Source: a virus (lineage: Duplodnaviria; Heunggongvirae; Uroviricota; Caudoviricetes). Taken from it: a stretch of DNA of 8,128 bases. Location: the IMG/VR virus record IMGVR_UViG_2671180608_000010. One strand, given 5' to 3'. The position numbers and the translations under genes were made by a program. This document shows, in pieces, positions 1-8,128 of the stretch (its first letter is position 1; the number at the start of each line of letters is the position of its first letter). The notes under the pieces were generated by a model that was not told the DNA's origin, made no database searches, and saw nothing but the letters and a program-made list of their open reading frames with translations.

Positions 1-243
1 AGATCTGACGGCGGCGCCGCCCTGACAACATCATAGTGTTTAAATGCCATGGTTCTTTCCACCATCTGAAAAATAATTCTTTAAAATACCTGACATGTAA
101 TACAGAAAAAACACAAAACCATACCTTAAATAAAAACCTGATTATCAAGCAGATATGCATGGATAAACTACAAGACGAGATATAAACCACCCTGCATTTA
201 AATAAACAATAAACAACATCAGAAAAATAATTCTGCTCTATGG

Positions 244-270
244 TTTACATTCAAAAATATCATTTATACT
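244..270 (+). promoter_or_regulatory. Candidate sigma70 promoter for the 311..646 ORF (TTTACA, 15-nt spacer, TATACT)
   Basis: Hexamers read directly at 244-249 and 265-270. Spacer is short (15 nt). AGGAA Shine-Dalgarno at 301-305, 5 nt before the ATG at 311. Confidence 0.25.
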
Positions 271-310
271 TTTCAGAACATCACCAGCAAGGCATAAACA
301 AGGAAACTAA

Positions 311-646
311 ATGAAGTGGATTGTGATTGATACAGTTATCCAGCCATCATGCGGAATATCTTTTTCAGTCATATGGAGTAAAATAAAATTAATAATCTGG
401 TATCAATCGGATGCTTTCTTACCTCCTGAAAGTATATTTACACTGACTCACACAGGCATCATGCTCAATAACAAAGTGCTACCTGTAACCATTTACAACG
501 TAGTACCATTCAATAAAACATTCTGGAATTCAATCAAAAATAGCCAGGAATGCCCTACAAATACAGATAACGTATTGAATGAATGCTTTAATAACCGTTG
601 CACTCTGCAAATATGTCCTTATGGACTAAAACAACAAAGTCCATAA
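311..646 (+). CDS. Hypothetical 111-aa protein in an AT-rich moron-like block; C-terminal half has 5 Cys; no recognisable family
   Basis: Uninterrupted 336-nt ORF in AT-rich DNA with a good RBS. Opposite orientation to the prophage late operon. Recognition by eye only, no homology claimed. Confidence 0.3.
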
Positions 647-670
647 GGAGTTTACTCACATCTGACAAAA

Positions 671-702
671 TCAATATAAACAGCCCCTCCGGAGAGGGGC
701 TG
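671..702 (-). terminator. GC-rich hairpin (cagcccctc/cgga/gaggggctg) followed on the minus strand by a U-rich tract; likely intrinsic terminator
   Basis: Perfect 9-bp stem at 681-689/694-702 with 4-nt loop. Minus-strand downstream sequence is UUUAUAUUGAUUUUG. On the plus strand it sits 35 nt after the 311..646 stop but has no U-tract. Confidence 0.4.
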
Positions 703-897
703 GAGAGTGGCGCTATGTGCCATTGCATGGTGCCGGGTGCCTCCCGGTGAATTCAGTACCAGCACCTGAATCCGCGATTATCCCATATACCTACTCGCTG
801 ATTGCCCCTCCGCACAGGGGGATTCACCATGCCAGTTTCTTTTAACAAACTCCCCGCAAAACAGACAACTGTCAACCGTCTGAATTGTGAGACATTT

Positions 898-923
898 AAA
901 AAAAAGGCCCGCAAAAGCGAGCC
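898..923 (-). terminator. Intrinsic terminator immediately downstream of the tRNA cluster
   Basis: Minus-strand hairpin GGCUCGC-UUUU-GCGGGCC (906-923) followed by 8 U (plus-strand A-run 898-905). Confidence 0.5.
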
Positions 924-937
924 AGGGAAAATAAGTG

Positions 938-1014
938 TGGCGCGTTGTACTGGATTCGAACCAGTGACCGATTGCTTAGAAGGCAATTGCTCTGTCCGGC
1001 TGAGCTAACAACGC
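938..1014 (-). tRNA. tRNA-Arg, anticodon UCU (reads AGA/AGG), 77 nt with encoded CCA
   Basis: Cloverleaf folded by hand from the reverse complement: acceptor GCGTTGT/ACAACGC, D-stem GCTC/GAGC, anticodon stem ATTGC/GCAAT with loop CTTCTAA, T-arm ACTGG-TTCGAAT-CCAGT, discriminator G, CCA. Confidence 0.85.
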
Positions 1015-1027
1015 ATGATGCAGATAA

Positions 1028-1104
1028 TGGACCGCCATCGGGGACTTGAACCCCGCGCAGCCAGCTTCGAAGGCTGGCGCTCTTTCCTGATGAGCTAATG
1101 GCGG
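1028..1104 (-). tRNA. tRNA-Arg, anticodon UCG (reads CGA), 77 nt with encoded CCA
   Basis: Hand-folded: acceptor CCGCCAT/ATGGCGG (unusual C1-G72), D-stem GCTC/GAGC, anticodon stem CCAGC/GCTGG with loop CTTCGAA, T-arm CGGGG-TTCAAGT-CCCCG, CCA. Confidence 0.8.
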
Positions 1105-1227
1105 TATGTGATGGTGGCCCTTGCTGGATTTGAACCAGCGACCTGGCGATTATGAGTCGCTCGCTCTCACCACTGAGCTAAAGGGCCGGGAGCCGCATAA
1201 TAACGACGCGTAATTAATTCTTCAATA
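1096..1227 (-). repeat. Direct repeat copy 1 (Arg-UCG 5' end, spacer, tRNA-Ile2, about 35 nt of upstream flank); second copy at 2833..2958
   Basis: Read directly: 1096-1193 matches 2833-2930 except one spacer SNP (tatgtga versus tttgtga). Flanks then diverge gradually. Confidence 0.85.
1112..1187 (-). tRNA. ileZ: tRNA with CAU anticodon, closest by memory to E. coli tRNA-Ile2 (ileX/ileZ type, reads AUA) rather than elongator Met
   Basis: Hand-folded: acceptor GGCCCTT/AAGGGCC, D-arm TAGCTCAGTGGTGAGAGC, anticodon loop CTCATAA, T-arm GCTGG-TTCAAAT-CCAGC, CCA. Ile2 versus Met cannot be settled without a classifier. The ileZ symbol is by analogy to the Stx-phage ileZ-argN-argO cluster. Confidence 0.8.
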
Positions 1228-2103
1228 TCATCCGTTCTGGCTGACTAAATCCTGTACTTCCCGAACCGTCTGCTCAAAACGTTCAGTCTCCAGCTCAACG
1301 CCAATTGCACGACGCCCGAGCGCCAGTGCCGCTTTCACTGTCGAACCCAACCCCATGAAAAAATCTGCAATCAGGTCACCCGGACGACTGCTAGCGCTGA
1401 TTATCTGCTGCAGCATTTCTGCCGGTTTTTCGCACGGATGTTTCCCGGGATAGAACTGCACCGGTTTATGCGTCCACACATCGGTATACGGCACCTGCAC
1501 CGTCACGCCAAAATACCGCCGCAGATGTTTATATTCACTCAGCAGCTCCGCATACTGCCGGTTCAGTGAGGTATACGTATCCACCAGCTGGTGGTGGAGC
1601 TTTTCCAGTTCACCACGCCGATGCTTCTCTTCTGCCACCCGGGCAAACAGCGCCTGTAATTTCAGATAATCGCTTTCATTCGGCAACTGCCACTGACCGG
1701 CACTGAACCAGTGCGACACCATGTTTTTCTTTCCTGTGGCATCTGCAATCTGTTTTGCCGTTATCCCCAGGGCAGCTCGCGCATCACGAAAGTAAGAAAT
1801 CAGCGGGGCCATCACATGCTGTTTCAGTGCACTGCCCTTCGCCGCATACCCGGCATCTTTCGGACGATACGGCCCCTGATAATGTTCCGCGAACAGAATG
1901 CGCTCTGTGGCGGGGAAATACGCCCGCAGGCTTTCCTTGTTGCATCCGTTCCAGCGTCCGGACGGCTTCGCCCAGATAATATGGTTCAGCACACTGAAGC
2001 GTTCACGCATCATGATTTCGATATCAGATGCCAGGCGATGACCACAGAACAGGTAAAGACTTCCGGCAGGTTTCAGCACCCGCCAGAACTGCGCCAGACA
2101 CTG
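1228..2103 (-). CDS. DNA methyltransferase, N6-adenine/N4-cytosine beta class (C-terminal AdoMet motif DFFMGLGST); visible 292-codon 3' portion, 5' end is N-masked
   Basis: Minus ORF ends with TGA at 1228. The motif-I-like FxGxGST near the C-terminus with an upstream target-recognition region matches beta-class architecture, so motif IV (DPPY/F) is expected inside the masked 2104-2613 run. The 1228..2655 track ORF is an artefact of reading through Ns. Confidence 0.8.
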   Translation of the reverse strand, partial: QCLAQFWRVLKPAGSLYLFCGHRLASDIEIMMRERFSVLNHIIWAKPSGRWNGCNKESLRAYFPATERILFAEHYQGPYRPKDAGYAAKGSALKQHVMAPLISYFRDARAALGITAKQIADATGKKNMVSHWFSAGQWQLPNESDYLKLQALFARVAEEKHRRGELEKLHHQLVDTYTSLNRQYAELLSEYKHLRRYFGVTVQVPYTDVWTHKPVQFYPGKHPCEKPAEMLQQIISASSRPGDLIADFFMGLGSTVKAALALGRRAIGVELETERFEQTVREVQDLVSQNG

Positions 2104-2832
2104 NNNNNNNNNNNNNNNNNNNNNNNNNNNNNNNNNNNNNNNNNNNNNNNNNNNNNNNNNNNNNNNNNNNNNNNNNNNNNNNNNNNNNNNNNNNNNNNNN
2201 NNNNNNNNNNNNNNNNNNNNNNNNNNNNNNNNNNNNNNNNNNNNNNNNNNNNNNNNNNNNNNNNNNNNNNNNNNNNNNNNNNNNNNNNNNNNNNNNNNNN
2301 NNNNNNNNNNNNNNNNNNNNNNNNNNNNNNNNNNNNNNNNNNNNNNNNNNNNNNNNNNNNNNNNNNNNNNNNNNNNNNNNNNNNNNNNNNNNNNNNNNNN
2401 NNNNNNNNNNNNNNNNNNNNNNNNNNNNNNNNNNNNNNNNNNNNNNNNNNNNNNNNNNNNNNNNNNNNNNNNNNNNNNNNNNNNNNNNNNNNNNNNNNNN
2501 NNNNNNNNNNNNNNNNNNNNNNNNNNNNNNNNNNNNNNNNNNNNNNNNNNNNNNNNNNNNNNNNNNNNNNNNNNNNNNNNNNNNNNNNNNNNNNNNNNNN
2601 NNNNNNNNNNNNNTTTAGCATGTCTTTTCCTTTTCCGGTTAACGTGACACACCAATAACTCTTGTCGAAAAAGCCAGCAAGCTGAAANNNNNNNNNNNNN
2701 NNNNNNNNNNNNNNNNNNNNNNNNNNNNNNNNNNNNNNNNNNNNNNNNNNNNNNNNNNNNNNNNNNNNNNNNNNNNNNNNNNNNNNNNNNNNNNNNNNNN
2801 NNNNNNNNNNNNNNNNNNNNNNNNNNNNNNNN

Positions 2833-2958
2833 TAATGGCGGTTTGTGATGGTGGCCCTTGCTGGATTTGAACCAGCGACCTGGCGATTATGAGTCGCTCG
2901 CTCTCACCACTGAGCTAAAGGGCCGGGAGCAGAATAATAACGGTCCGTAATTAATTCC
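2833..2958 (-). repeat. Direct repeat copy 2 of the tRNA-containing segment; the rest of the Arg-UCG tRNA lies in the 2688-2832 N-run
   Basis: taatggcggt at 2833-2842 is the 5' portion of the Arg-UCG tRNA as at 1096-1105. Similarity to copy 1 fades after about 2958. Confidence 0.8.
2849..2924 (-). tRNA. ileZ: Second copy of the CAU-anticodon tRNA (Ile2-like), identical to 1112..1187
   Basis: 76-nt sequence identical to copy 1, read directly. Sits 37 nt downstream of the candidate tR' hairpin. Confidence 0.8.
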
Positions 2959-2960
2959 GC

Positions 2961-2985
2961 AATAAAAAACCCGCTCGGCGGCGGG
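2961..2985 (-). terminator. Candidate tR' intrinsic terminator downstream of Q
   Basis: Minus-strand hairpin CCCGC-CGCCGA-GCGGG (2970-2985) followed by UUUUUUAUU (2961-2969). In lambdoid phages Q-modified RNA polymerase reads through tR'. Confidence 0.6.
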
Positions 2986-3034
2986 TTGTAGAAACTCTTC
3001 TAACGTCAGGCATAAAACGCCCATAGTTATGACG

Positions 3035-3062
3035 AATTTACCACAGATTCCGGAAAAATCAA
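3035..3062 (-). promoter_or_regulatory. Candidate late promoter pR' (TTGATT, 16-nt spacer, TAAATT) just downstream of the Q stop
   Basis: Hexamers read on the minus strand at 3062-3057 and 3040-3035. Position matches lambdoid pR'. The Q-binding (qut) element cannot be defined from sequence alone. Confidence 0.4.
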
Positions 3063-3067
3063 CCTTG

Positions 3068-3889
3068 TTACCTAGTTACCTTTTTTAACTGCCGCTCAGC
3101 CCATGCTTCTTCAATATCAAACCGGGTCACCAGCGCATCATAAAATTTCTTAACTGTTTTTTCCCATGACGCGCGTGTTATCTGGTTTGTCACCTCGCAT
3201 ATAGCATTAAATGCCTCCGTTGATGGTAGTCTTTCATAGCCACGACCACCACAACGCTGGCAGTCTCTGATAACAGGCATACCACGTTTTACCGACTCTT
3301 CACGATGAATGGCGACACCACGCCCACGGCAATCCTTACAGGCGGTGGAAACCTCACCCTTTCCGCCACACTCCGGACAGGCAACTTTTACCACCTCCCT
3401 GACTTTTTTCCATTCTTCCCAGTAAGACGGATACACACCTTTCGTACACTTTGCCCATACCGGCGGCTTACCATCCGGATACTGGACCTTGTTTGTAAAA
3501 ACTACGCTTTCAATAAATTTTTCCCCATAGCAACAAGGGCACTGCTTTTTACTCGCTGCGCTGCGGGCATAATCCTCAAAAGCGTACGAAGCCATAATGC
3601 GCATCACTACCGGTTTTATTTCTGCCGGAAGTTTTCTCAACGCCGCCACACGATCGCACCGACTGAGTGCATAATCTGCCAGTAATTCTGTTGCCCGCGC
3701 CCTGTCATTCATACTGATGCCCATTTTCCCCAGGAACGCAGAAAACCCCATCTCAGCCCGATTCTGTGTCATGCCCTGCGCGGCCATCACATCAGTGATA
3801 CTCAGCGCATCTTTTGACGTTGAGGCCGATGCATCGGTCAGGCAAGGGGATTTTGGGGAGTAGTATTTCGGTAAATCTTCCAGTTTCAT
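3068..3889 (-). CDS. Q: Late-gene antitermination protein Q (lambda Q family, long variant with Cys-rich zinc-binding region)
   Basis: 273-aa ORF. N-terminus (MKLEDLPKYYSPKSP...TDVMAAQGM) and C-terminus (YDALV) align by memory with lambda Q; several CxxC pairs. Start ATG overlaps the upstream rusA-type stop (ATGA). Confidence 0.85.
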   Translation of the reverse strand: MKLEDLPKYYSPKSPCLTDASASTSKDALSITDVMAAQGMTQNRAEMGFSAFLGKMGISMNDRARATELLADYALSRCDRVAALRKLPAEIKPVVMRIMASYAFEDYARSAASKKQCPCCYGEKFIESVVFTNKVQYPDGKPPVWAKCTKGVYPSYWEEWKKVREVVKVACPECGGKGEVSTACKDCRGRGVAIHREESVKRGMPVIRDCQRCGGRGYERLPSTEAFNAICEVTNQITRASWEKTVKKFYDALVTRFDIEEAWAERQLKKVTR

Positions 3890-3918
3890 TTTTTGACCTG
3901 CTCTTCATGCATTATGGG
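3838..3918 (-). repeat. Duplicated rusA-3'/Q-5' junction, copy A (partner at 4864..4947)
   Basis: About 80 nt near-identical between the two positions (ttttggggagtagtatttcggtaaatcttccagtttcattttttgacctgc...). Copy A runs into the N-run at 3919. Confidence 0.8.
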
Positions 3919-4412
3919 NNNNNNNNNNNNNNNNNNNNNNNNNNNNNNNNNNNNNNNNNNNNNNNNNNNNNNNNNNNNNNNNNNNNNNNNNNNNNNNNNN
4001 NNNNNNNNNCCACGCGATCACACNNNNNNNNNNNNNNNNNNNNNNNNNNNNNNNNNNNNNNNNNNNNNNNNNNNNNNNNNNNNNNNNNNNNNNNNNNNNN
4101 NNNNNNNNNNNNNNNNNNNNNNNNNNNNNNNNNNNNNNNNNNNNNNNNNNNNNNNNNNNNNNNNNNNNNNNNNNNNNNNNNNNNNNNNNNNNNNNNNNNN
4201 NNNNNNNNNNNNNNNNNNNNNNNNNNNNNNNNNNNNNNNNNNNNNNNNNNNNNNCTTCCGGACAGGCTTAATTTCAGTCGCTGCTGACGGACAATAAGCG
4301 CCACATCCCGGCGATAACGCTCACCGGCTTTTGATACAAAATATGTGTTGTCACGACGTCGCCAGTAAGTATTCACCGTCGGCGGATAAGGTAAAATAAA
4401 CTCATGGCGCAT
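3886..4412 (-). CDS. Second RusA-like resolvase gene, integrity uncertain (interior masked; N- and C-terminal frames disagree if N-run lengths are true)
   Basis: Visible N-terminus MRHEFILPYPPTVNTYWRRRDNTYFVSKAGERYRRDVALIVRQQRLKLSLSG (4412-4255) is about 90% identical to rusA at 4915..5295. Visible 3' end ...PIMHEEQVKK-TGA at 3886 is in a different frame, and the span is 146 nt longer than rusA copy 1. Confidence 0.45.
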
Positions 4413-4669
4413 CAGCGCAGCACCTCCTGCACCAGTTTTTCAAACTTTCCGACTCTGGTTTCCAGCTCTGCCACACAGTCCACCAGCTCATCTACTGCTT
4501 TCTGTGCGCGATGCTTCGCCTGCATCAGTTCCCGAAGCGCGGGTACCATATCTTTACGGATAGCGTCTTTTGTTATGCCCGTTTTTTCGAGTTGTTCAGC
4601 ATGACGCAGCATTTCCTGCGCGTGTTTACGCAATTGTTCAGGGGTAAAAGTCATTGTCTGGTTGTTCAA
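4412..4669 (-). CDS. Hypothetical 85-aa (80 aa from the ATG at 4654) helical protein, translationally coupled to the downstream RusA-like gene
   Basis: Stop TGA overlaps the rusA-like ATG (TGATG). TTG start at 4669 has GGAG 8 nt upstream. Charged coiled-coil-like composition; no family recognised. Confidence 0.55.
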   Translation of the reverse strand: MNNQTMTFTPEQLRKHAQEMLRHAEQLEKTGITKDAIRKDMVPALRELMQAKHRAQKAVDELVDCVAELETRVGKFEKLVQEVLR

Positions 4670-4821
4670 AAGAAACGCTCCATCTTACTGCTGTCAGTTC
4701 GTTTATTACTGTATCTGCGCGGATTGCCGGGCTTCATGGGAGTGGAAAGCACCCGTGCACTTTCCTGGTCCACAGGCAGAAAATGTCCGTAGACTGGCCC
4801 CCTGAATCTCCAGACAACCAG

Positions 4822-4841
4822 TATCACTTAAATAAGTGATA
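4822..4841. repeat. Perfect 8-bp inverted repeat with 4-bp spacer, TATCACTT-AAAT-AAGTGATA; candidate protein-binding site
   Basis: Read directly. TATCAC matches lambda operator half-site consensus. Lies in a non-coding stretch beside the 11-nt N-run. Confidence 0.5.
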
Positions 4842-4863
4842 GTCTTAATACTNNNNNNNNNNN

Positions 4864-4918
4864 CAGTCAGGCCGGGGGATTTTGGGGAGTAGTATTTCGG
4901 TAAATCTTCCAGTTTCAT
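4864..4918 (-). pseudogene. 5' fragment of a Q gene (first 18 codons MKLEDLPKYYSPKSPGLT), then masked and divergent; recombination scar
   Basis: DNA near-identical to the start of Q at 3889-3838. After the N-run the reading frame gives unrelated sequence and stops at 4706. Confidence 0.6.
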
Positions 4919-4947
4919 TTTTTGACCTGCCCTTCAAGCATTATGGG
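4864..4947 (-). repeat. Duplicated rusA-3'/Q-5' junction, copy B
   Basis: Near-identical to 3838-3918, read directly. Confidence 0.8.
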
Positions 4948-5295
4948 ATAAATCTTCACCCCCAGACGTCCACCAGATACTGGCTGAGCACGAACGATAT
5001 TGATTTCATCAAACTGCTCATCGTCCATTAGCAACCCCGCATGCGTCAGCGCATCCAGCGGCGCTTTCAGAATATTGTCCAGGTCACGGCGGCGCTTATC
5101 CGGTGGTTCTGCAATAATTTTTATTGCCAACCTTCCGGACAGGCTTAATTTCAGCCGCTGCTGGCGAACAATAAGCGCCACTGCCCGGCGATAACGCTCC
5201 CCGGCTTTTGATACAAAATATGTGCTGCCACGACGACGCCAGTAAGTGTTCACCGTCGGCGGGTAAGGTAAAACAAATTCTATGCGCTCGGTCAT
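4915..5295 (-). CDS. rusA: Crossover junction endodeoxyribonuclease RusA (Holliday junction resolvase), 126 aa
   Basis: Aligns by memory with E. coli RusA: LPYPPTVNTYWRRR..., PDKRRRDLDNILKA..DALT.AG...DDEQ, GGRL. Start abuts the DUF968 stop (TAAATG). Confidence 0.9.
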   Translation of the reverse strand: MTERIEFVLPYPPTVNTYWRRRGSTYFVSKAGERYRRAVALIVRQQRLKLSLSGRLAIKIIAEPPDKRRRDLDNILKAPLDALTHAGLLMDDEQFDEINIVRAQPVSGGRLGVKIYPIMLEGQVKK

Positions 5296-6354
5296 TTATG
5301 CTTTCCACTTCAGAACACCCGAATTTCTCGCGTGCATTAAAAAACGAATCAGCAACAACAGCTGACTGCCGTGTTTCTCTTCAAAATCTTTTACTCCGGC
5401 ATGTAGTTCGTTACGGCATTTACGGCATAACGGAATAACAAACAAATCATCAGCCTTTGTTCCCATCCCTCCCAGTCCATGACCAATGATGTGATGCGGA
5501 TCATCTGCCTGATTGCCACACGTCATGCATTTCTGCGTTTTTACCCAGCGCGTGTATACAGGCATCTCTTCCCGTTGTGATTTCTGGCGCTGGAGATACT
5601 GAGCCGGTGACTCCGGATCAACGGCAATGCTGACCACCGTCTTTTCCTGTGGTGGGTTCTGTTGCTGGTGGACGTGAGGCAGTAACGCAATATTTTTTGT
5701 GCGCTGCTTCAGTATGCTGGTGGCTGTCTGCTCTCCCGGTATGATGTCGCTTTCACTGTACACAGAGCGAATTTTTTCCGCACGCAACCCCAGCGAACGA
5801 CGTAATACCGCTTCCGGTAGCGCGTCCGCCACCTGATTGCGGACCGCCCACCAGGATAATTCAGCCAGAGATAATTCACGCTCCTGCGTACCGCTTATTG
5901 CGTGACCGATGACGTCAATCATCCATGCTGACAGGTTTTGATGAGCAAGTTGCTCGAGTGATTCGGATGTCTGGTCACGCAGCTGGTTGTCGCAGTGCCA
6001 GCACAACACCATTGCGCCGGTACCATAACGGTGAATGACGGTTTCGCTGTGATGATAATCGCCGTGTGGCCACTGGCAGGATTTAATATGGCGCAACAGC
6101 CAGTCAGACAATGCACCAGCACCACCAGCAGCACGAATCACCCGTGCGTTACTGAAAAACGGCAGCAATGTTTTGTCTTCCACCAGCGGCTGGCGAGCGG
6201 CAGGAACGACCCCGGACGGCAGATTACGCATGCTTTTTGGTTCCGGCTCCACCAGTATTCTGCCGTTATGGAATGCTGACATTGATTCACGGCCTGGCTT
6301 AACGATAACCAGACCGAGTTCCGGTACCAGAACAGGTCGAAGTAATACCCGCAC
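5296..6354 (-). CDS. DUF968-family prophage protein with C-terminal HNH-like Cys/His motif (YdfU-like), 352 aa from a GTG start
   Basis: C-terminal CMTCGNQADDPHHIIGHGLGGMGTKADDLFVIPLCRKCRNELH matches the DUF968 signature. GGAGG lies 4 nt upstream of the GTG; true start could be the ATG 24 codons in. Confidence 0.8.
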   Translation of the reverse strand: MRVLLRPVLVPELGLVIVKPGRESMSAFHNGRILVEPEPKSMRNLPSGVVPAARQPLVEDKTLLPFFSNARVIRAAGGAGALSDWLLRHIKSCQWPHGDYHHSETVIHRYGTGAMVLCWHCDNQLRDQTSESLEQLAHQNLSAWMIDVIGHAISGTQERELSLAELSWWAVRNQVADALPEAVLRRSLGLRAEKIRSVYSESDIIPGEQTATSILKQRTKNIALLPHVHQQQNPPQEKTVVSIAVDPESPAQYLQRQKSQREEMPVYTRWVKTQKCMTCGNQADDPHHIIGHGLGGMGTKADDLFVIPLCRKCRNELHAGVKDFEEKHGSQLLLLIRFLMHARNSGVLKWKA

Positions 6355-6429
6355 ATTACCTCCAGATCCGTTGCTGGAATGTGCGGGACGGACGCGTTGG
6401 CCGTTCGGAGTAAGGGAGCCTGACGGAGA

Positions 6430-6711
6430 TTATCCAGTGACGGTAGTCGAGGCTAAGGGCTTTTTTAACCTCGCATCCGCGCCTGCGGTAACACTGAATG
6501 AGCCATTCGGCCTGTTCTTCAGTGCATGGGGGATGCTGGTACCAATCAGATTTAAATGCGTGAGAGCGCCGCCCGTGCCTGCTGGCAAAGACGGCTGAAT
6601 TATCAGAATTGTGTAGTCTGGAAGGCAGTGGCTGACAATAGCGCCATTCTCAACGCGCACAGTATAGAGGCCATCTTCACTAAAAATTTCACGTAATTCT
6701 TCGATTTTCAT
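6430..6711 (-). CDS. Hypothetical 93-aa protein (MKIEELREIFSEDGLYTVRVENG...), in the position rem occupies in Qin-type prophages
   Basis: ORF with GGAAGGA about 8 nt upstream of the ATG at 6711. Sequence equivalence to Rem is not claimed. Confidence 0.5.
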   Translation of the reverse strand: MKIEELREIFSEDGLYTVRVENGAIVSHCLPDYTILIIQPSLPAGTGGALTHLNLIGTSIPHALKNRPNGSFSVTAGADARLKKPLASTTVTG

Positions 6712-6793
6712 CAACAGAATCCTTCCAGATAAATAGCACTCCCCTGTTCGGGGTCCATCCCTCTTCTCCCTGCGCGCTACTTAAGTATTTTTG

Positions 6794-6824
6794 ATTCTAT
6801 TCCGGCACCATCTAAAACTTCAAA
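6794..6824 (-). promoter_or_regulatory. Candidate sigma70 promoter (TTGAAG, 18-nt spacer, TAGAAT) for the 6430..6711 gene
   Basis: Hexamers read on the minus strand directly after the hok terminator. Confidence 0.3.
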
Positions 6825-6830
6825 CGCGTT

Positions 6831-6861
6831 GAAAATAAAAACAAAAACCCGCCGAAGCGGG
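6831..6861 (-). terminator. Intrinsic terminator of the hok transcript
   Basis: Minus-strand hairpin CCCGC-UUCG-GCGGG (6848-6861) followed by UUUUUGUUUUUAUUUUC. Confidence 0.65.
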
Positions 6862-6931
6862 TTAAGTGTGGGTGCATTGAGGATGCCTGACCCATCAGAG
6901 GTGGCGAGGGATTTCTCCCCCGCCTGGTCTC

Positions 6932-7087
6932 TTACTCCTCAGGTTCGTAAGCTGTGAAGACAGCGACCTCCGTCTGGCCGGTTCGAATTCGTACCTCGCA
7001 GAGGTCTTTCCTCGTTACCAGTGCCGTCACAATGACGGTTAAACAGATGACGATCAGGGCGATTAACATCGCCTTTTGCTGCTTCAT
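6932..7087 (-). CDS. hokD: Hok/Gef-family membrane toxin, 51 aa (HokD/RelF-like)
   Basis: MKQQKAMLIALIVICLTVIVTALVTRKDLCEVRIRTGQTEVAVFTAYEPEE matches the Hok family from memory. AAGGAG 9 nt upstream. The 70-aa track ORF is an in-frame upstream ATG extension. Confidence 0.85.
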   Translation of the reverse strand: MKQQKAMLIALIVICLTVIVTALVTRKDLCEVRIRTGQTEVAVFTAYEPEE

Positions 7088-7298
7088 AGCCTGCTTCTCC
7101 TTGCCTTTCGGCACGTAAGAGGCTAACCTAGATTTGCCGTTCATAGATTGAGCCTCAGATTAATGTTAAGCGTCTTGCCGGACGCGTAATGTTAACTGGG
7201 GCTTTTCTCTATCTGCCTTTTGGTGTTCATGCCTGAGACAGATAGCCTCAAGCACCCGCTGCAATTCTACTTAACTCTCCTTTTCCCGCAAACCGTTT

Positions 7299-7382
7299 TT
7301 ATCCCCAGCGGCAAATCGAATACACCACCAGCGCCACCGCCATCGCAATTCCTACCGTTGTTAATGCTTCAGGCCAGGTCAT
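7299..7382 (-). CDS. Candidate 27-aa hydrophobic peptide [27 protein letters not shown], start overlapping the ORF-C stop (ATGA)
   Basis: Translated by hand; not in the ORF track (too short). One predicted transmembrane segment. AGGA precedes an internal ATG. Could be a non-translated leader. Confidence 0.3.
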
Positions 7383-7723
7383 CGTAAAATATCCTCCACG
7401 CTTATCAGTCCGTTCCGCTCCAGATAACTCATCGCCTTATCCGGTAATTTGCAGTCTGGCTTCGCTTTCCTCAGTTGCCAGGTTAACTGCTTTACCAGCA
7501 TGGTTAACTCATCGACCAGACGCTGATATCCCACTGGTTTGTATTCATGCAATTTACCGGCTGGCTCTGCTGCCAGCGATACCAGTGCGATTTCCAGAAC
7601 AGCAATATCCATCTTATATGTGCGGATGATGTCATGGTCGATTGTGCCCGGTATGCACAGTCTCTGTGCTTCAATAGTCTCCTCTGCGTGAGCTATTAAC
7701 TGCTCTCTGGTAAAAGTCGTCAT
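7379..7723 (-). CDS. Hypothetical 114-aa protein ORF-C; N-terminal domain paralogous to ORF-B
   Basis: ORF whose ATG overlaps the ORF-B stop (ATGA). Shares MTT(I/F)T(K/R)E and M(E/D)(L/I)A..(I)AL.SL.AEP motifs with ORF-B. No family recognised. Confidence 0.6.
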
Positions 7724-7887
7724 GCCGTAGCCCCTTCTTGATATTTTTCAAACCAGAACACAACCGGCTCTGCTTCCAGCGATGCCAGCGCAATCCGTGC
7801 CAGTTCCATTTGTTCACCACGGGTAAGCCCGTTTTCAAGCGGGTTTTTAATGAACAATTCAATACGTTCTTTGGTAATAGTGGTCAT
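7720..7887 (-). CDS. Hypothetical 55-aa protein ORF-B ([55 protein letters not shown]), absent from the ORF track
   Basis: Translated by hand. Perfect AGGAG 6 nt upstream of the ATG, immediately after the ORF-A stop. Stop overlaps the ORF-C start. Confidence 0.5.
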
Positions 7888-7897
7888 GTGTTACTCC

Positions 7898-8128
7898 TTA
7901 ACCCGCAGTGCTTTCAACTGATGAGGGGAACAAAATCTTTTCATCAAACCCTGCATTCATATCATGAACAGCAACACACCAATCCATCGACGAACGATTA
8001 TCAAGAGCCTCCATGATTTCATCCATGCGGCGTAGGTCATACAGGTAAATGCTTTTATCGCCAATGGTGTAAAAGCCAATTTTTTTCGGTGATGGATGAG
8101 GTGTACTGGCAATAGCGGACACTACCAT
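7898..8128 (-). CDS. Hypothetical protein ORF-A, at least 76 aa, possibly truncated by the window edge
   Basis: ORF ending TAA at 7898-7900, directly followed by the ORF-B RBS. An ATG sits exactly at the window edge, so the true N-terminus is unknown. No family recognised. Confidence 0.4.
   Translation of the reverse strand: MVVSAIASTPHPSPKKIGFYTIGDKSIYLYDLRRMDEIMEALDNRSSMDWCVAVHDMNAGFDEKILFPSSVESTAG

Follow-up and report, generated by a model that had tools for sequence, protein, structure and literature searches.

The window, by which we mean the whole stretch of 8,128 nucleotides of viral DNA analysed here, belongs to a lambdoid prophage whose late genes are read from the minus strand, with genes for DUF968, RusA, the antiterminator Q, an N6/N4 DNA methylase and three tRNAs. 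The tRNA genes form a cluster of the ileZ-argN-argO type at 938–1187 (minus strand), which was recognized by both ARAGORN and Rfam and is 93% identical to the 933W cluster; it comprises a tRNA(CAT) at 1112–1187, named tRNA-Ile by PGAP, tRNA-Arg(TCG) at 1028–1104 and tRNA-Arg(TCT) at 938–1014, and after the last of these lies a terminator hairpin at 906–923 on the same strand. At the left edge of the window begins nanS-p, which comes next among the late genes and which we identified from the annotation under E. coli genome matches as a DUF1737/SASA-family sialate esterase gene; it occupies 1–50 on the minus strand, with its ATG at 50–48, and runs off the window edge. Positions 1–51 are 96% identical to the nanS-p starts of phages 933W and phi296. 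Between the tRNA genes and nanS-p lie an STnc100-family small RNA gene on the late-gene strand (672–861) and an AT-rich block (51–680) that carries, on the plus strand, the gene that we assign as iraL (311–646).

The only ORF (open reading frame) longer than 50 amino acids in the AT-rich block is that at 311–646. It opens with an ATG, is preceded by a Shine–Dalgarno sequence (AAGGA, 301–305) five bases ahead of the start codon and encodes 111 amino acids, and these features bear out the single plus-strand ORF with a ribosome-binding site that had been described from the letters alone in an earlier, sequence-only reading of this DNA. That reading had proposed a homology search of the 111-residue protein, and the search returned the IraM/IraL family of RssB anti-adaptors, to which RssC of Salmonella also belongs (PMC4045071). 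Residues 1–110 align with positions 1–113 of the 114-position NCBIfam profile NF007393 (‘anti-adapter protein IraM’) with a score of 162 bits against a curated cut-off of 121, and residues 1–78 match the crystallized RssB-bound domain of IraM (PDB 8twd) with E = 6e-31 by phmmer and 1.8e-39 in a profile search of the PDB. The encoded protein is identical with IraL from E. coli CFT073 at 110 of 111 residues, and shares 61% identity with K-12 IraM. Assignment to iraL follows a published criterion, by which at least 95% of the nucleotides across the entire coding region should be identical with those of CFT073 iraL (PMC4045071); here two of 336 nucleotides differ, at window positions 531 and 541, and the nucleotide identity to iraM is only 70%. 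The gene is therefore one already known, which was first reported in 2014 from the uropathogenic E. coli strain CFT073 and from Shigella sonnei. With high confidence we assign 311–646 as iraL, a lysogenic-conversion gene of E. coli and Shigella lambdoid prophages with an anatomy, read from the sequence, that is antisense to the late operon and flanked by STnc100; the function in the RssB/RpoS pathway is that of the 99% identical protein and would be carried over from it.

Database labels for this family differ. In RefSeq, all of the E. coli hits listed have the homologous ORF under the name ‘anti-adapter protein IraM’, and the exact 111-residue sequence, with Ser-74, is entered as ‘MULTISPECIES: anti-adapter protein IraM [Shigella]’ and is widespread in that genus, for example in S. 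sonnei 53G (HE616528). PHROGs places the family in phrog_4407, ‘unknown function’, despite a function published since 2014. Precomputed Pfam tables label it PF11183 (PmrD), and the fold of IraM does resemble that of PmrD (PMC10844676), both of which would favour a PmrD-like connector acting on a response regulator other than RssB. However, that label was not reproduced by our local Pfam-A scan of the ORF and ten family members, which gave no family match (the only hit, Nairovirus_NSm at E = 0.056, is taken as chance), and our PDB profile search found only IraM 8twd and did not detect PmrD. As the window protein is, in addition, 99% identical to one that has been shown to bind RssB and to stabilize sigma-S (PMC4045071), we regard a PmrD-like connector as very improbable and retain the assignment to IraL.

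The transcript start of iraL has been published for CFT073. The 5′-RACE sequence reported there, ACATCACCAGCAAGGCATAAACAAGGAAACCA, maps to window 278–309 with one mismatch, where no chance matches are expected, and the transcript start is therefore position 278, which leaves a 5′ UTR at 278–310. This upholds the candidate promoter that the sequence-only reading had proposed for the ORF. From their position relative to the published start we infer the hexamers TTTACA (244–249) and TATACT (265–270), separated by a 15 bp spacer, as the probable promoter (244–270, plus strand). A sigma-70 consensus scan, which allowed spacers of 16–18 bp only, did not list this promoter because of its 15 bp spacer, and inspection by eye of the DNA upstream of iraL gave no convincing PhoP or Fur box. 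An identity to CFT073 of at least 96% in the promoter and upstream region was taken as a mark of iraL as opposed to iraM; over 51–310 the window differs from CFT073 at four positions (63, 120, 277 and 308), and the promoter and 5′ UTR are identical in the two except at 277 and 308. In contrast, similarity to K-12 iraM DNA is confined to the coding region (window 309–630, 70%), and the promoters of iraL and iraM are thus unrelated.

At the other end of the gene, a perfect 12 bp inverted repeat, TCCTTATGGACT/AGTCCATAAGGA, with a 10-nt loop (616–649) spans the iraL stop codon and is a candidate 3′ stem-loop of the iraL mRNA. It is the sole plus-strand structure available to iraL and is followed only by GTTTACTC, with no clear U-tract, and so is not a canonical intrinsic terminator. 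The iraL transcript may therefore end near this stem-loop or at the hairpin of the neighbouring STnc100 gene, or may read antisense into STnc100. The loop and 3′ arm of the repeat encode QQSP, the four C-terminal residues that IraL has in excess of IraM. At the position matching 616–649, a short palindrome, GCCCATATGGGC, is seen in K-12 iraM, which differs in having a separate canonical terminator further on.

The sequence-only reading had the ORF converge on a hairpin at 681–702. This hairpin is real, with a 9 bp stem containing seven G-C pairs and a folding energy of −17.4 kcal/mol; the segment 600–715 folds with z = −6.8 relative to shuffled sequences, and the region holds four terminator-like sites where shuffles give 1.1 ± 1.3. 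It does not, however, belong to iraL. A T-run comes after the hairpin on the minus strand only (TTTATATTGA), and in the Rfam alignment 702–681 forms the 3′ terminal stem of STnc100, after which comes UUUAUAUUG; the iraL ORF therefore converges on the terminator of another gene. The stem recurs unchanged in phi296, a phage without iraL, and the hairpin is therefore part of the phage backbone and not of the cargo. The gene that it terminates is an STnc100-family sRNA, the EcOnc27-type convergent sRNA of lambdoid prophages, which matches the full length of the Rfam model RF02076 (positions 1–206, window 861 to 672 on the minus strand) and scores 133.6 bits, where the gathering threshold is 47. 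The two qPCR primers published for STnc_100 (PMC12370729) are likewise contained in the window sequence, one at 739–758 on the plus strand and the other as the reverse complement of 811–830. This sRNA belongs to an already catalogued family and had been missed in the sequence-only reading. A RefSeq partial ‘hypothetical protein’ overlies the STnc100 gene on the opposite strand (equivalent to window 717–842, plus strand) and is probably an annotation artefact. We also treated the ORFs at 717–845 (plus), 753–986 (minus) and 802–1008 (plus) as spurious, since they overlap the sRNA or tRNA genes and have no support from Pfam, NCBIfam or PHROG.

A sharp drop in GC content below about 660 had already been noticed, and we could confirm it: window 1–660 has 34.1% GC against 50.5% in 661–8128 (N-masked runs excluded). 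The bounds of the AT-rich block are in fact sharper than first noted, and place it at 51–680, a 630 bp segment with 32.2% GC between flanks of 52% (1–50) and 52.9% (681–937). Within the block, the DNA upstream of the iraL ORF has 29.6% GC and contains A-tracts, the ORF itself has 34.5%, and its GC content at third codon positions is 0.33 compared with 0.48–0.58 in the other phage ORFs. In blastn comparisons, the similarity to 933W and phi296 stops sharply at position 51 and again at approx. 680; both of these phages keep the two flanks and lack the iraL block. The block thus combines a deviant composition with presence or absence as a unit among related phages, as expected of a moron, and also has a promoter of its own, the published transcript start lying inside it at 278, antisense to the late operon. 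These data support the view, already put forward in the sequence-only reading, that the block is cargo acquired horizontally; it lies among the late genes of a lambdoid prophage, with the phage tRNA genes on one side and nanS-p on the other.

A 21-nt direct repeat is found in the AT-rich DNA upstream of iraL, with one copy at 60–80 (CACCATCTGAAAAATAATTCT) and the other at 214–234, just upstream of and abutting the −35 region of iraL; both copies are on the plus strand, are identical at 19 of 21 positions and share the core GAAAAATAATTCT. A small ORF at 36–185 (plus strand) was considered as a gene and rejected, as it had no Pfam, NCBIfam or PHROG support.

The ORF had also been placed where Stx phages carry stx. 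Comparison by blastn with 933W aligned window 897–1250, which includes the hairpin at 906–923, to 933W L005 2412–2058, a segment that contains the site annotated as ‘possible rho-independent terminator upstream of the stx genes’, and window 724–894 to L005 3926–3745. The stxA2–stxB2 genes of 933W (approx. 1.3 kb) are therefore inserted at the point that corresponds to 894–897 in the window. The order in 933W is argO, the terminator, stxA2–stxB2, STnc100 (L005 3778–3983), AsxR on the opposite strand (3985–4037) and nanS-p. The earlier placement was thus right as to the region from the tRNA genes to nanS-p, but the slot is some 200 bp off: the iraL block occupies 51–680, and the STnc100 gene lies between it and the stx insertion point at 894/897. 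The tRNA-to-nanS-p region contains two cargo slots split by STnc100, and iraL is in the AsxR slot, not the stx slot: its block takes the place of the stretch running from the STnc100 terminator, at the 3′ end of that gene, to the nanS-p ATG. The stxAB moron of 933W resembles iraL in being cargo unrelated to phage growth within this intergenic region of the late operon. It differs in lying on the tRNA side of STnc100 and in being co-oriented with the late operon, and hence Q-dependent, whereas iraL lies approx. 200 bp further on, at the opposite side of STnc100, and is antisense.

Several O157 prophages have been described as carrying ‘convergent sRNAs’ at this moron site (Tree et al. 2014, PMC4104026), and in Stx and other lambdoid prophages AsxR and AgvB occupy the same position as iraL, just upstream of nanS-p; like iraL, they are antisense to the late operon and convergent with an sRNA of the STnc100/EcOnc27 type (PMC4104026). 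The difference is in content, since there the slot holds an sRNA of 51–60 nt and here it holds a protein-coding gene with approx. 260 bp of upstream DNA. Rfam gave no match reaching threshold for AsxR or AgvB in the window.

The closest known counterpart is the iraL gene of the potB prophage of CFT073 (c1429, WP_000871291.1; Hryckowian et al. 2014, PMC4045071), which shares its promoter, transcript start and 5′ UTR with that of the window and is likewise located among the late genes of a lambdoid prophage, flanked by STnc100 and the start of nanS-p. The two loci differ in that CFT073 alone has, between tRNA-Arg and STnc100, an extra block of approx. 640 bp that includes a DUF3927 ORF, and in that IS200 follows Q in CFT073 whereas a DNA methylase gene lies between Q and the tRNAs in the window. 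Both slots are filled in CFT073, the stx slot by the DUF3927 ORF and the second by iraL.

The ORF is conserved in related genomes. At a threshold of at least 90% identity, 1446 of the 5426 complete genomes of E. coli (27%) contain the 630 bp block, in one to three copies that are almost all chromosomal, and at least 80% of window 1–940 is present in 1428 genomes, from which it follows that iraL has the same flanks wherever it occurs. Four phage records also carry the block, and a family search returned only proteins from Escherichia and Shigella.

The N-terminal part of the protein is homologous to the RssB-binding β-barrel domain IraM(1–78), to which it was matched by both phmmer and profile search. 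An AlphaFold2 model built on an 11-sequence alignment has a mean pLDDT of 62.7 and is usable only for residues 1–79; it shows residues 1–80 as seven strands and one helix (block-mean pLDDT 61–81), whereas the Cys-rich tail at residues 80–111 has a pLDDT below 50, at which the model cannot tell whether the four cysteines cluster. By reading the alignment we found that most of the RssB-contact residues of IraM are kept in the window protein, at Ile-4, Ile-6, Trp-22, Lys-26, Ile-42, Cys-14, Phe-18, Trp-30, Ile-61 and Tyr-62, with conservative changes at four further contact positions (T13S, L75I, H63N and I64V). The sole substitution relative to CFT073 IraL, L74S, is the Shigella form and adjoins position 75, an RssB-contact residue in IraM (PMC10844676).

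The C-terminal part of the protein had suggested in the sequence-only reading that it could be a disulfide-bonded secreted protein. Cys-81, Cys-92, Cys-97 and Cys-102 all fall within the last 31 residues (residues 81–111, window 551–646) and, together with a CPYG motif, are invariant in 11 representatives of the IraM/IraL family down to 54% identity, an arrangement that would suit a small protein of this kind in the periplasm or outside the cell. Invariant Cys4 patterns in cytoplasmic proteins, however, more often bind metal. The same reading had seen no clear signal peptide, and inspection agrees: the N-terminus contains Asp-7, and residues 1–22 form two β-strands both in the model and in the aligned IraM structure. 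Moreover, residues 1–78 align to the IraM domain that was crystallized with RssB, a cytoplasmic response regulator, and IraL itself co-purifies with RssB (PMC4045071). We therefore consider a secreted disulfide protein to be effectively refuted already, and give it hardly any credence; the product is IraL, a binder of a cytoplasmic protein. In the structural study of IraM the C-terminal tail was left out of the crystallized construct as unstable, and was called less conserved and flexible (PMC10844676).

Deletion of iraL lowers the log-phase level of sigma-S and shortens its half-life in both CFT073 and S. sonnei, halving this half-life in CFT073, and two-hybrid and pulldown assays showed that IraL binds only RssB's N-terminal domain, unlike IraM (PMC4045071). 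K-12 IraM (b1160; 8TWD) is of the same family, with the same four C-terminal cysteines, CPYG motif and RssB target; it is published as an anti-adaptor induced by Mg2+ starvation and able to bind the two domains of RssB, in contrast to IraL, which is active in log phase and uses the N-terminal domain only (PMC4045071). In the crystal structure of IraM with RssB, the receiver domain of RssB is covered by the anti-adaptor on its 4-5-5 face (PMC10844676). By analogy with the 99% identical protein, the small cytoplasmic IraL encoded in the window would bind the receiver domain at the N-terminus of RssB, an adaptor that in this state could no longer deliver sigma-S (RpoS) to the ClpXP protease; with no hand-over by RssB, RpoS would be stabilized, most of all during exponential growth.

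The conditions in which the gene is expressed bear on a further proposal of the sequence-only reading, that the cargo is probably silenced by H-NS. In CFT073, iraL is expressed in log phase (mid-log LB cultures) from a sigma-70-type promoter (PMC4045071), so that published transcription of the near-identical gene speaks for expression of the ORF. Its mRNA rises by 1.6 log2 units at 37°C relative to 23°C (PMC12890032), and its level is higher in a fur mutant (PMC7157518). On the assumption of silent cargo, iraL would be H-NS-repressed and contribute nothing in ordinary growth, and the 29.6% GC and A-tracts of the upstream region are what might be expected of such a block. Yet a near-identical promoter is transcribed in mid-log CFT073, and loss of the gene lowers sigma-S in two strains (PMC4045071), and from this transcription and deletion effect it follows that any silencing is partial. 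The published log-phase expression argues against full silencing of iraL by H-NS, and we consider the silent-cargo explanation unlikely. The paralogue iraM is reportedly repressed by H-NS, and this report and the AT-richness of the block make some modulation of iraL by H-NS plausible by analogy.

The position of iraL in the prophage suggests how its expression would relate to the phage cycle. As it sits in a 630 bp block with a promoter of its own and faces the Q-dependent late operon, iraL would be expressed in the lysogen independently of Q, and on induction the late transcripts that Q allows to pass the terminators would cross it in the antisense direction. The iraL and STnc100 genes are convergent, with 3′ ends that may share the 681–702 hairpin, and could form with this antisense transcription a cis-antisense switch that couples RpoS stabilization to lysogeny and is turned off on induction. 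In addition, the tail with its CPYG motif and four invariant cysteines might constitute a Cys4 site, for a metal or for redox sensing, through which the stability of the anti-adaptor is controlled. Jointly, we regard these two ideas as speculative and on balance doubtful, and a Cys4 metal site in the IraL/IraM tail is conjecture. To our knowledge, neither idea appears in the literature on IraL and IraM that we consulted.

The observation made from the sequence is thus confirmed and its first interpretation was partly right, with iraL and the adjoining STnc100 gene both being known already. A seemingly anonymous AT-rich ORF of the Stx region is a characterized gene that is routinely labelled IraM and occurs in about one-quarter of complete E. 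coli genomes. IraL raises RpoS in growing cells, which has been proposed to aid the stress resistance of uropathogenic E. coli and Shigella, and the presence of iraL is therefore informative on the physiology of the host strain.

Elsewhere in the window, the late-regulatory module is partly duplicated (2849–5295, minus strand). There are two RusA ORFs, at 4915–5295 and 3912–4412, and a truncated ORF at 4706–4918 with the N-terminal residues of Q lies upstream of the full Q gene (3068–3889); a second tRNA(CAT), at 2849–2924, has an Rfam score equal to that of the copy at 1112–1187. The arrangement resembles two lambdoid prophages joined in tandem or as a mosaic. Masked runs of N occur at 2104–2613, 2688–2832, 3919–4009, 4024–4254 and 4853–4863, and interrupt two ORFs, that of the DNA methylase and the second one for RusA, neither of which can accordingly be judged as intact. 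Finally, a hok/sok type I toxin–antitoxin locus is found at 6932–7257 (minus strand), with a Hok/Gef-family ORF at 6932–7144 (Pfam E = 3e-23) and a sok antisense RNA at 7082–7257 that scores 112 bits in Rfam.
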